From: Alphaproteobacteria bacterium
GTDB lineage: Bacteria > Pseudomonadota > Alphaproteobacteria > MPNO01
Length of the DNA: 64,000 nucleotides
Direction of reading: 5' to 3'
Assembly: GCA_965248835.1 (NCBI GenBank)
Contig: CBDFLJ010000002.1
Coordinates: forward strand, 704,001-768,000
In this document: in pieces, positions 8,951 through 12,312 of the stretch
Position numbering within the stretch: position 1 is the stretch's first letter
Layout of the letters: each line of letters starts with the position of its first letter
The notes under the pieces: generated by a model
Told to the model about the DNA's origin: nothing
Database searches by the model: none
Seen by the model: only the letters and a program-made list of their open reading frames with translations
Made by a program: the position numbers and the translations under genes

Positions 8951-10699
8951 TCATTCTTCCGCCTCCGCATAGGGGCGGTAATCCACCAGCGCCGACCGGC
9001 CGACGATATCGATGATGCGAACCAGCATTTTCTTTCCGTCGGCGTCGGTGAGGCGCAGGTCTTCGCCGAGAACGAAGTGAACCGGCTGCTGGCGTCCTTC
9101 GTTGATGGCGATGTTGGAGGCATACAGGTAGGTTCTGTCGTGGGTATCCAGGATAGGGTTCAAGCGCCCGGTCAAGCCCGGAACCTGGCCGGTGGCCTCC
9201 GGAAAGATGACGGCGCCGCCCTCCGGCAGGGCTTCGAGTTCCAAGGCGAGCGCACCTCTGCTTGGCCGCCACTCCCGTTCCAGACAGGCGGCATGTCCTG
9301 AAGCGGCTGCGAACACCGTCATCGGAAGATGGGTCGTGTGCAGATCGACGGCCGCCTCGCCGTGTTCGTTCGTCGTGGCGCGCTTCCAGGTTTTGTTCGG
9401 AAACAGGACCAAAAGGTCGGCGTCCGGCAAGGGTTGGCCGACGGTCCGCACCGTGATGACAGCGCGCGCGGGACTTTGCTCCTGGGCTGACGCAGGAATG
9501 GTAAGGCACACTTCCGACCCGTCGATCAGCCGGTATTCGGGCAGTTGTCCGCTGAGTGCCCTGGTCTCGCGCTGGATGATGGGCACCCCGTCTCCGCGGC
9601 GCTCCATGAAATACTGCCGATCCTCCGAGCCTTCGACGCCCCCCACAGGCATTCGTCCCAGAACCGAGGTCAAGGCTTCGTTACGTGTCGCCTGCCGCGT
9701 TGCCATGCTGTCGATGGTCAGGTTGTTAGGCAGCGATCCGGGCGATTGAATTTCCAGGCGATCCTCAAACATCGACAGGCGGATCTTGCTGGCGCGCATC
9801 GAATAGTCGCGATGCGCCACGGCATTGACCACTGCCTCAAATAGCGCCTTGCCGCTGTACTGGGGCAGGTCCACGCGCGCCGGCTCCTTGCGCGCCGCAA
9901 CCCGCATGTTCCTTATGGCAAAGACCACCGCATCGGCGATTTGGCGGTTAAGCGGGCCGGTAATTTCCTGTGTGTCGATCTGGCCAGAGGCGCGGTCTTT
10001 GCCCCGATAGTGCGTAGCCGTTATGCAGGCGTTGGGAAGCCGCTGCTCGGGACTTCCGGTACACAACAACACCCCAGCTACCGTGGCCCGCGGAATTCCG
10101 GCCTCGTCGGGCGCCATGAGCGCCATCTTCCCGAGTGCTGACTCGGGGTCCGCAGCGCCCTCGGCGGTCAACAGTGGTTTCCAGAGCGATTCATCCAGCG
10201 TTCCGAATCCGGTATCTGGAAGAGTTTGCTCGTCGAACGACGGGAAACGCGCCTGTCCCCGTCGTTGCGCCAAGCGCAATCGCTCGTCGTTGGTCATCCT
10301 TCGCTTTGTGCCGCCTACGCGGATATAGCTTCCACCTGGGCTGTCGTGCAGCGATTCGCCCTGCGGCACTTCGAGCAGCAGCAACGGTTTGCCATCCAGT
10401 TGCGCGTGCTGGGTGCGGATGCGAACGGGCGGTACGATGGTGTCGGAGCTCACCTCCACCAGAACCCTATCCAGCTCGACAATCTGTTCGCCGGACATGC
10501 CCTGTACTTCGCCGTGGTCAGTGACGCCGCAGAGCAGCACGCCGCCGTCCGCATTGGCAAACGCCGCGATCTCGTCCGCCCAGTCATCGCGCCTGGGACT
10601 CCTCGGGCGGTTGCCGGCGAACTCGATCTGCTTGAACTCCCAGTGGCTGTCTTCGCCGAGGCCGAGTTGGCGTCTGATTTCTTCTTCTCTGTGGGTCAT
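8951..10699 (-). CDS. Schlafen/AlbA_2 domain + HATPase_c_4 (RecG-C-like) protein with an extra beta-rich C-terminal domain
   Basis: GEDSHWEFK...[33 protein letters not shown]...LEIQSPG...MERRGDG. Overlaps the hsdM stop codon. Confidence 0.85.
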
Positions 10700-12312
10700 C
10701 GGTCGCCTCCAAACCCAAGCGCCGCTAAGTTGGCCTCGATGGTGGCGTTCAGCTTCGCGCCCTCAGCCTGCTGATCGCGAAGCTGCGCGACGAGCCGTTT
10801 CATCTTGTCCTCGAACGGCTCGCCGTCATCCTCCGGCGCCTCCGCACCGACATAGCGGCCAGGGGTTATCACGTGGCCGTGCTTTCGCACTTCTTCTAGT
10901 GGCGCGCTCCTGCAGAAGCCGGGCGTGTCGGCGTACTCACCTGCGTCTTCCTCACCGCGCCAGGCGTGGTAGGTATCGGCGATGCGGGCAATGTCCTCAT
11001 TCGTCAGCTCGCGGTGGGTCCGGTCGATCATCCGGCCGAGCTTGCGAGTATCTATGAAAAGGACCTCGCCGCGACGGTCGCGGAACTTGCCGCCTTTACG
11101 GTCGCGGGCAAGGAACCATAGGCAGGCGGGGATCTGGGTCGAGTAGAAGAGCTGGCCGGGCAGGGCAACCATGCAATCGACCAGTTCCGCCTCAATCAGG
11201 CTCTTTCTGATCTCACCCTCGCCCGATTGGCCCGACGACATCGAGCCGTTGGCGAGCACAAAGCCGGCGACGCCGACCGGTGACAGGTGGTGGACGATGT
11301 GCTGCACCCAGGCGAAGTTCGCGTTGCCCTTGGGCGGGGCGCCGTACTGCCAGCGCTTGTCGTCGGCAAGCCGGTCGCCGCCCCAGTCAGAGACGTTGAA
11401 CGGCGGGTTGGCTAGGATGAAATCAGCCTTGAGGTCGGCGTGGCGGTCGTTGTGAAAGCTGTCGCCGTGGGCGATCTGCCCCTCGATGCCGCGGATGGCG
11501 AGGTTCATCTTGGCGAGCCGCCAGGTTGTGTAGTTCGACTCCTGGCCGTAGATCGAGATATCGGCCTTGGCGCCCCTTGGAACCCTTCCGCTATTGCCGT
11601 TTCCGGTGGCGTGCGCGCGGATGAACTCGACCGACTGGACGAACATGCCAGAGGAGCCGCAGCAGGGATCGTAGGCCCGGCCCTCGTAGGGCTCCAGGAT
11701 CTCGACCAGCAGCTTGACCACGCAGCGCGGGGTGTAGAACTCGCCGCCCTTCTTGCCCTCGGCGTCCGCGAATTGCGACAGAAAATATTCATAGATGCGG
11801 CCGAGCACGTCCTTGGATCGGGCGTCCTCGTCACCGACCCTGATGTTGCTGATCATGTCGATGAGCTGGCCGAGCCGCTCCTTGTCGAGGGCGGGGCGGG
11901 CGTAGTCCTTGGGCAGCACGTCCTTGAGCGCCGGGTTGTCGCGCTCGATCCCGGCCATCGCGTCGTCGACGAGCTGGCCGACGGTGGGCTGCCGTGCCTG
12001 GGCCTTGAGATGGATCCAGCGCGCCTCGGGCGGCACCCAGAAGATGTTCTCGGCGCGGTACTCGTCCGGGTCTTCAGCCGCATCCTTGCCCCATTCGGCA
12101 AGAACCGCTGCATGGCGCTCCTCGAAGGCATCAGAGATGTATTTCAGGAAGATCAGGCCGAGGACGACGTGCTTGTACTCGGCCGCGTCCATCGAGCCGC
12201 GCAGGGCGTCGGCCATACGCCACAGCTCCGCTTCGTAGCCGGTCGTGGCGCCATGCGAGGCCGACTTCCGGTCGCGCGCGGATGTCGCCTTCTTCGGTCG
12301 TCCCCGTGCCAT
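10696..12312 (-). CDS. hsdM: Type I restriction-modification N6-adenine methyltransferase
   Basis: [28 protein letters not shown] and ANPPFN motifs. Confidence 0.95.

Follow-up and report, generated by a model that had tools for sequence, protein, structure and literature searches.

Genes at the locus

The window analysed here is a 64,000-nucleotide stretch of the genome of an Alphaproteobacteria bacterium (contig CBDFLJ010000002.1, positions 704,001 to 768,000), and the gene under study, P0001, encodes a protein in which a Schlafen nuclease domain is joined to a GHKL ATPase region and a C-terminal β tail. The gene follows hsdM of a type I restriction–modification (RM) operon on the same strand (Table 1). 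As the first-pass annotation of this DNA had stated, the 582-residue gene overlaps the hsdM stop codon: the ATG of the Schlafen gene and the TGA of hsdM share the sequence ATGA, and a GGAGG motif is located 7 nucleotides (nt) upstream of the ATG. This arrangement of the sequence indicates that the two genes are translationally coupled.

An IS3-family insertion sequence (IS) begins 18 nt past the Schlafen stop codon. The element is bounded by inverted repeats of 29 nt (7569-7597 and 8904-8932), Pfam assigns HTH_Tnp_1, rve, rve_3 and HTH_21 domains to its orfA and orfB, and seven near-full copies are found in the genome at 89-100% identity. A 217-nt contig of run X3 covers positions 8902-9118 with 0 differences, but probably derives from the source sample and hence is not independent support; the read mapping used short metagenome contigs, for which gaps and depths are not interpretable.

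The closest related operon (L006) is 82.5% identical at the DNA level over positions 12253-8948 of the window. The similarity starts near 12253, within the 5' end of hsdM, and ends exactly at the Schlafen stop codon. When the genome (4.89 Mb, two contigs) was searched with the HsdS, the HsdR and two flanking proteins of this operon, no cognate hsdS or hsdR was found, and the sole match, at 25% identity, was to a separate type I RM system. This system is complete and lies 1.6 Mb away (G000 C2:2326442-2333654, corresponding to L005 8443-15655, plus strand), with an HsdM of 737, an HsdS of 556 and an HsdR of 1023 residues; its HsdM is 23% identical to that of the window. The idea that the IS had split one operon into two loci was rejected, as the second type I system is unrelated. 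The operon in the window is a stump cut by the IS, in which hsdM and the Schlafen gene persist without hsdS and hsdR. The earlier description of the gene as embedded in a type I RM operon therefore holds as regards its position beside hsdM, but not as regards an operon with hsdS and hsdR. In the separate type I system an open reading frame (ORF) of 219 residues with no Pfam family lies between hsdS and hsdR.

Table 1. Positions of the Schlafen gene, its domains and the adjoining features in the window
Feature	Position	Strand	Basis
Schlafen gene P0001, 582 residues: nuclease, GHKL ATPase and two-part β tail	8951-10699	-	ORF, translation, Pfam
SLFN_AlbA_2 nuclease domain, residues 16-136	10292-10654	-	Pfam PF04326, E 1.3e-20, above cut-off
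GHKL (Bergerat) ATPase region, residues 278-400	9500-9868	-	HATPase_c_4 (PF13749) and PDB 3lmm
Tail sub-domain N, residues 401-487: predicted transthyretin/CarboxypepD_reg-like Ig fold	9239-9499	-	AlphaFold2, Foldseek
Tail sub-domain C, residues 488-582: predicted 7-stranded β domain, no known family	8954-9238	-	AlphaFold2, Foldseek
hsdM, 538 residues, orphaned	10696-12312	-	N6_Mtase 1.1e-104, HsdM_N 1.6e-28 (Pfam); PADLOC MTase_I 1.1e-217
IS3-family element: orfA 7638-7922, orfB 7919-8890	7569-8932	+	Inverted repeats, Pfam, genomic copies
Second IS3-type orfA fragment, abutting the IS	7254-7559	+	HTH_Tnp_1 E 6.6e-26

Domains and motifs of the Schlafen protein

P0001 is a single chain in which the SLFN domain comes first and the GHKL region follows (Pfam). 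The active-site motif of the nuclease domain is formed by E16-x4-E21-F-K23, the sequence AAFAN (residues 45-49) followed by DGG, and GVTD (residues 58-61), which includes D61. In the ATPase region the match to HATPase_c_4 (PF13749) extends over residues 304-400 (E 5.3e-18) and the alignment to PDB 3lmm covers residues 278-376; the N-box consists of E288-x3-N292, accompanied by H296 and D298. The AlbA_2/Schlafen motifs, the HATPase_c_4 region and the tail strings quoted in the first-pass annotation are all present in the translation and the Pfam matches. Neither an ABC-type ATPase nor a HEPN-like nuclease domain was found in the protein with Pfam.

These residues are highly conserved among 77 orthologues. 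In the nuclease domain E16 is kept in 76, E21 in all 77 and K23 in 75; A46, A48 and N49 are each present in 77/77 and F47 in 76/77, while D61 is found in 73 and is replaced by E in 3 more. The four GHKL residues E288, N292, H296 and D298 are each retained in every orthologue. More than 100 full-length relatives exist at 75-86% identity. By its sequence the Schlafen gene is genuine and complete, and purifying selection acts on it. The PADLOC model of a Schlafen-bearing prokaryotic Argonaute (pAgo) aligns to residues 42-408 of P0001 (E 3.4e-15); for the architecture of Schlafen, GHKL and tail PADLOC holds no model except the Schlafen parts of pAgo and Aga. In a variant, P0006 (859 residues), the Schlafen domain and the tail are accompanied by a GHKL region doubled in tandem, residues ~94-407 being internally duplicated.

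Structure of the tail

The tail (residues 401-582) has no Pfam match even at E<=10 and no NCBIfam match. An AlphaFold2 model built with an alignment of 65 tail-bearing proteins is all-β and shows a rigid tail of two domains, with a mean predicted local distance difference test (pLDDT) of 95.5 and a predicted template modelling score (pTM) of 0.89. It contains no helix of four or more residues, and no helix–turn–helix (HTH) family matches the tail at E<=10. Structure prediction and Foldseek agree that the tail is not an ordinary HTH, in keeping with the earlier reading of the letters as a β-rich sequence.

Sub-domain N is predicted to share the immunoglobulin (Ig) fold of the CarboxypepD_reg/transthyretin-like domains (PF13620). 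Foldseek aligns it with 5aq0 (TMt 0.77, r.m.s.d. 2.9, 84 columns), 9hfj (TMt 0.71) and 3e8v (TMt 0.68), and also with 3mn8 and 2nsm. PF13620 itself is detected by Pfam in 24 of 84 tail-bearing relatives, though it falls below detection in P0001, and a sequence profile of the tail run against PDB chains finds Ig-type chains only, all of them in the N part. In contrast to PF13620 domains elsewhere, the context of the tail is cytoplasmic and immune-type, and sub-domain N is followed by a second, unmatched β domain.

Sub-domain C is marked by the consensus GRLNPI.D...RTYLYA.NIAI. Modelled alone it retains a confident structure (pLDDT 94, pTM 0.84). It belongs to no Pfam family, and Foldseek gives no real match in the PDB (best E 0.11, TM<=0.35) or in BFVD (best E 0.021); in ESM Atlas features its score of 0.80 is at chance level. 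Compared with the PDB and BFVD, sub-domain C may represent a new fold. The likeness to carboxypeptidase-regulatory and Ig-like folds that had been noted for the tail as a whole thus stands for sub-domain N, whereas sub-domain C matches nothing. The two sub-domains together will be referred to as the NC tail.

The NC tail on other proteins

A HMMER scan of 1.84 billion representative proteins with the tail only gave 581 clusters at E<=1e-3, 421 at 1e-10 and 109 at 1e-30. In the best 150 of the 581 clusters the units are most often arranged as NC (104), followed by C (24), CC (9), CNC (5), N (3) and CCC (2), with NCNC, CNCNC and NNC observed once each, and the unit is almost always located at the extreme C-terminus. 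Only 38 of these 150 representatives carry the Schlafen-GHKL part. Pfam partners were counted in 84 of the best 150 (those of at least 300 residues plus some shorter ones) and comprise HATPase_c_4 (24), SLFN_AlbA_2 (10), TIR_2 (8), DUF4143 (6), Fic-like_C (5), AAA_14 and TIR (3 each), Peptidase_C14, Pkinase, DUF4062, SEFIR and Trypsin_2 (2 each), and PIN_8 and M48 (1 each). The architectures observed include TIR_2-NC, Trypsin_2-C(NC)2, Pkinase-(NC)2, caspase-CNC, PIN_8-NC and AAA_14-DUF4143-NC; in TIR_2-NC proteins the tail is 57-70% identical to that of P0001. Stand-alone NC proteins of 140-214 residues also exist. The NC tail is a mobile module shared among effector types, and is found on TIR, caspase, trypsin, kinase, PIN and other proteins among the 581 clusters.

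The first-pass annotation had the tail standing in place of the winged helix that is usual in this family. P0001 indeed has no winged helix, but some relatives carry one after the tail (GHKL-NC-wHTH). Because relatives with the order GHKL-NC-Fic-like_C exist, the HTH is a separate, optional addition. DUF4062-GHKL-NC proteins similarly occur with or without the Fic-like_C winged helix, and GHKL-NC is therefore a unit that carries either Schlafen or DUF4062, the tail being no simple substitute for an HTH.

In five orthologue-bearing genomes searched whole the tail is present once, on the Schlafen gene only. The phage collection holds no record of it. The plasmid collection has a single one, on a 734-residue TIR protein of Sinorhizobium, the gene for which is surrounded by genes for three more TIR proteins, a UvrD helicase and an AbiEii toxin.

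A metagenome scan gave 80 tail loci, which were classed by the host ORF around the tail as Schlafen-GHKL (35), TIR (23), AAA_14 (4) and other or short (16), with no host called in 2. The TIR-type set used for neighbourhood analysis (n=26) consists of the 23 classed loci and 3 loci of the same length that matched over residues 4-350. No conserved neighbour of the TIR-NC genes was found, no cluster being present in more than 2 of the 26 loci. Pfam analysis of 72 neighbouring ORFs of at least 100 residues within three genes identified GmrSD_N, N6_N4_Mtase, AAA_21 and PIN (2 each) and RE_TdeIII, AbiH, AbiTii, Mrr_cat, RES, HNH, ResIII and integrase (one each); the 25 commonest families include none of type I RM. 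The neighbours of TIR-NC genes are variable defence-island content.

Orthologues and their neighbourhoods

The genome collection contains 259 relatives of the Schlafen gene, and the locus analysis was based on the best 80 of the 259, which are 67-85% identical over their full length. According to record titles the orthologues span more than 12 phyla and include Acidobacteriota, Latescibacterota, Chloroflexota, Nitrospira, Alpha- and Gammaproteobacteria, Poribacteria, Entotheonella, Binatia, Gemmatimonadota, Rhodothermales, Opitutales and Trueperaceae, many of which are presumably sponge-symbiont groups. The family is very common in the phylum to which one Poribacteria locus belongs, where a TIR-NC query has matches in 73 of 176 genomes and ~56 of the 176 have an open frame of 581-654 residues around the tail match; the whole Schlafen-GHKL part was present in 27 of 30 loci taken from that phylum.

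Neighbours were analysed in 77 of the 80 loci using crude longest-ORF gene calls (L049, L058 and L076, in which no host ORF was called, were dropped). Singleton neighbours were left unannotated, and the defence share is consequently a lower bound. Clusters of HsdM, HsdS or HsdR lie within four genes in 29/77 loci, and in 39/77 at least one RM, HepT/MNT, AAA_21, PIN or TIR-SEFIR gene is found within that distance, so that about half of the homologues adjoin annotated defence genes. Complete operons typically have the order hsdM-X-(HepT/MNT)-hsdS-(TIR-SEFIR, AAA_21)-hsdR, in which X is the Schlafen gene. The gene is thus an insertion between hsdM and hsdS, frequent but not obligatory, and does not occupy the place of hsdS, contrary to the first-pass annotation.

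No neighbour cluster is universal across the 77 loci. None of the neighbours was found to have the tail, and homotypic adaptor pairing with a co-encoded tail protein was rejected for this reason. A conserved small downstream partner was likewise not found: 25 loci have a same-strand ORF of at most 135 residues at position +1, with a single cluster of 5 among them. The ORF of this cluster (81 residues, no Pfam family) has a 4-nt overlap with the stop codon of the Schlafen gene (L014, L019, L039, L051 and L073) and is followed by HepT in the first three and by HsdS in the other two. These observations suggest that the Schlafen gene has no obligatory partner and is autonomous, because it is intact in the window although the cognate hsdS and hsdR are gone.

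The residence in RM operons raises the question of whether the protein acts as a guard of the RM enzyme. PrrC and RloC combine an ABC-type ATPase head with a HEPN-like anticodon nuclease, and their latency depends on the RM enzyme. P0001 resembles them as a predicted latent tRNase within a type I RM gene cluster, but the fold is unrelated. In such a scheme the RNase would be held latent by HsdM or the type I complex via the tail and freed by a phage anti-restriction protein. The ATGA coupling to hsdM is consistent with this, as are the 12/77 loci in which hsdM lies directly upstream on the same strand, the hsdM of the window's lineage (at least 300 residues in 27/80 loci, fragments of 25-265 residues in 11 more) and an in-frame HsdM-GHKL-NC fusion in one metagenome locus (L135). 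Set against these, no hsdM of this lineage is present in the remaining 42/80 loci, and a dependence of P0001 on the RM enzyme finds no support; the window has an intact gene although the cognate hsdS and hsdR are missing, and the HsdM of the other type I system of the genome is only 23% identical; TIR-NC genes have neither a conserved neighbour nor type I RM among their commonest neighbour families; and the five whole genomes have the tail only on the Schlafen gene. A guard of this type is considered improbable. The sensor–effector role first proposed for the gene fits the published prokaryotic Schlafens, but its second element, the sensing of RM inhibition, is not supported in view of the loci that lack hsdM, the intact gene of the window and the TIR-NC contexts.

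The L135 fusion is encoded at 5640-8552 (+) of a 229-kb metagenome contig as a 970-residue ORF without the nuclease domain. In it HsdM (residues 2-536, 62% identical to that of the window) is continued by Schlafen protein residues 149-582 (68% identical). The fusion is either a deletion that removes toxicity or a possible sign that the protein and HsdM are physically linked.

In L009 a 292-nt copy of the hsdM 3' end (11525-11810), 75% identical to window positions 10998-10707, is found downstream of the Schlafen gene, while hsdM itself (4360-5894) lies 3 kb upstream. Several other loci have only 25-136 residues of the hsdM 3' end left, just upstream. Cargo genes may enter these operons by recombination at such repeats of the hsdM end.

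Poribacteria-type operons (L050, L057, L061, L073 and L082) contain TIR_2/SEFIR proteins of ~500 residues and AAA_21 ATPases between hsdS and hsdR, with two TIR_2/SEFIR proteins in tandem in L057. With these insertions there are therefore three different accessory modules in one RM operon.

Comparison with known Schlafen systems and proposed function

The Schlafen and GHKL core and its residence in RM operons have already been published, and the tail is the new part. The combination SLFN + GHKL is the ‘Schlatpase’ supradomain, present in 60,692 of 103,533 prokaryotic Schlafen proteins, and Poribacteria have been noted to carry a stand-alone Schlatpase gene within their type I RM operons (Kuzmenko et al., bioRxiv 10.64898/2026.05.29.728809). 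In that preprint small Schlatpases are described with no further domain or with an HTH, and in the Schlafen-Argonaute RzAgo ATP binding by GHKL drives tetramerisation to an active nuclease that cleaves tRNA, the oligomer interfaces being supplied by the GHKL domain itself. P0001 has the same order of SLFN_AlbA_2 and PF13749, and its E288/N292 can be likened to the ATP/Mg-binding E314/N318 of RzAgo by the shared E-x3-N spacing, not by alignment. It differs in having no Argonaute core, and the NC tail would gate the output instead of guide/target recognition.

A survey of 5,930 prokaryotic Schlafen (pSlfn) proteins distinguished 55 compositions, among them HisKinase (34%), HisKinase-HTH (19.2%) and Ig-like (3.9%) (Perez Taboada et al., Nat Microbiol 2026, PMC13056530). 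The Ex4(E/D)xK motif and the SAFAN box are the hallmark of active Schlafen nucleases (PMC13056530; bioRxiv 10.64898/2026.05.29.728809). P0001 likewise has an N-terminal Slfn nuclease domain with Ex4(E/D)xK, is a single gene, with annotated defence genes near about half of its orthologues, and shares the HisKinase (GHKL) domain with the HisKinase and HisKinase-HTH classes. Its composition, GHKL, Ig and a 95-residue β domain, is nevertheless different from the common ones, and in place of the C-terminal HTH of the HisKinase-HTH or COG2865-type class it has an all-β tail. RorSlfn5 senses phage through its Ig-like C-terminal domain, which binds a T5 tail assembly chaperone and, when swapped, transfers specificity (PMC13056530). 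RorSlfn5 and P0001 both end in an Ig-like β-sandwich, a likeness of fold type and not of compared sequence. A protective Schlafen with a C-terminus of no known domain has also been described (PMC13552941). The three-domain architecture, initially considered uncharacterised, is so only in part: no paper describing the NC tail was found, although Supplementary Table 2 of PMC13056530 may list a Schlafen-GHKL-NC composition, whereas the core in RM operons was known.

From its motifs P0001 is probably a Schlafen-type defence RNase. The favoured interpretation, held at slightly better than even confidence, is a single-gene abortive-infection tRNase of the Schlatpase type with a tail that senses infection; that the tail is the sensor, an analogy with RorSlfn5, is by itself given a little under an even chance. 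By comparison with the published relatives, ATP-driven assembly of the predicted tRNase would pair the Schlafen domains into the active enzyme, and tRNA cleavage would halt translation and abort the infection. The architecture and the RorSlfn5 precedent suggest that the NC tail would act as the input module, gating this switch on a phage-derived cue, most likely a protein; by the same architecture, TIR, caspase, trypsin, kinase, PIN and further effectors could use it as their plug-in sensor.

It is tempting to extend this to an undescribed, horizontally mobile infection-sensing cassette that recognises one conserved viral or cellular cue and is carried by eight or more immune effectors that are unrelated (Schlafen-GHKL, DUF4062-GHKL, TIR, caspase, trypsin, protein kinase, PIN and AAA_14-DUF4143). 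The unusual conservation of NC would then imply a single cue and therefore one trigger for many effectors, but this wider proposal is tentative and on present evidence rather unlikely.

Several observations weigh against an abortive-infection tRNase with a sensing tail. By mean pairwise identity in the 77 orthologues the tail is conserved as strongly as the enzymatic domains (0.625 for sub-domain N and 0.69 for sub-domain C vs 0.655 for SLFN and 0.72 for GHKL). The sensor of pSlfn5 is the more variable part of its protein (PMC13056530), whereas the tail of P0001 does not exceed the nuclease in variability. In 38/77 loci, some of which lie beside gyrA, PhyH or sarcosine oxidase, all of the annotated defence clusters are absent. 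HisKinase-class pSlfns were among those tested, but protection against the phage panel was conferred by the DUF262 and Ig-like fusions alone, and that paper shows no stand-alone GHKL-class Schlafen to defend (PMC13056530). Contigs of an RNA-library run that are ~90% alike over 9648-9991 represent relatives in the library and not transcription of the gene.

The conservation of the tail would also be explained if NC were a constitutive self-association clamp or scaffold, similar to the C-terminal dimerisation domains of other GHKL ATPases, with the infection sensed elsewhere. Such a clamp would bring together effectors that work by induced proximity (TIR, caspase, kinase, PIN and Schlafen), and all of the NC fusion partners are enzymes known to need oligomerisation. 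The invariant tail positions are mostly Gly or Pro, which suggests a structural role; the tandem arrays (NCNC, CNCNC, CCC) are also consistent with a clamp, and in the relatives with a wHTH after NC the other domain could be the input. The GHKL domain of RzAgo provides oligomer interfaces, however, so that an extra clamp for the putative self-association is not required, and the stand-alone NC proteins suit a binding module at least equally well. The clamp is accordingly regarded as unlikely, though it deserves more weight than the RM guard.

Alternatively, the tail could bind a small molecule or second messenger in the manner of SAVED, CARF or Csx15, with the producer encoded elsewhere. The NC effectors (TIR, caspase, trypsin, PIN and Schlafen) resemble those fused to cyclic-nucleotide sensors, and a Csx15-Schlafen whose activator is cyclic tetra-adenylate (cA4) provides a precedent (PMC13462974). 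Five polar positions of the tail are conserved in the 77 orthologues (D518 in 77, Q538 in 77, D552 in 76, R522 in 75 and N514 in 75), and TIR-SEFIR genes share the operon in 5/77 loci. Neither the 77 orthologous nor the 26 TIR-NC loci have a conserved signal-producing neighbour, however, and Foldseek gives no structural match to known nucleotide sensors. Of the explanations considered this is the least probable.

Finally, the protein could be a non-immune regulator or housekeeping RNA- or DNA-binding protein, in line with COG2865 or RecG-like annotation, or an inert relic of the decayed RM locus. In source records the label ‘putative DNA binding domain-containing protein’ is given to relatives, annotated defence neighbours are lacking at about half of the orthologous loci, the locus in the window is visibly decaying, and 30.4% of pSlfn genes are away from known defence genes (PMC13056530). 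Against this, a DNA-binding HTH is absent from the protein, the nuclease and ATPase motifs are under purifying selection, a spread over more than 12 phyla with 67-85% identity retained is the usual pattern of mobile defence cargo, and the other partners of the tail are immune-type effectors. A non-immune role is therefore very improbable, and a single-gene tRNase with a sensing tail remains the preferred interpretation.

Schlafen nucleases were shown in 2026 to be ancient antiviral tRNases common to bacteria and humans. As to how the abundant Schlafen-GHKL class senses infection, the NC tail offers a defined and confidently modelled candidate for the input module, and identification of its ligand would at one stroke account for how many single-gene immune proteins (with TIR, caspase, protease, kinase and PIN effectors) are triggered. 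The crossing of more than 12 phyla, many of them taken to be sponge symbionts, would mark intense exchange of defence genes in that habitat. The window alone is of modest significance: its defence gene is of a known kind, and the RM operon next to it has decayed.

Other features of the window

Between hsdM and the TRAP transporter genes lies an ORF of 123 residues (12343-12714, minus strand) with no family match. On the strand opposite to the operon, positions 4442-4867 (+) encode a 141-residue fragment of an HsdR/SWI2_SNF2-type helicase (TIGR00348 4.7e-6; SWI2_SNF2 1e-6); it was considered as a remnant of the operon's hsdR and rejected, being unrelated to the hsdR of the orthologous operons. 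A remnant of polysaccharide synthesis extends over 5183-7559 and comprises an intact Bac_transf/CoA_binding_3 sugar transferase (5183-6595), a truncated NAD-epimerase (6695-7087) and the IS3 orfA fragment of Table 1. This part of the window is a decaying, IS-ridden stretch.

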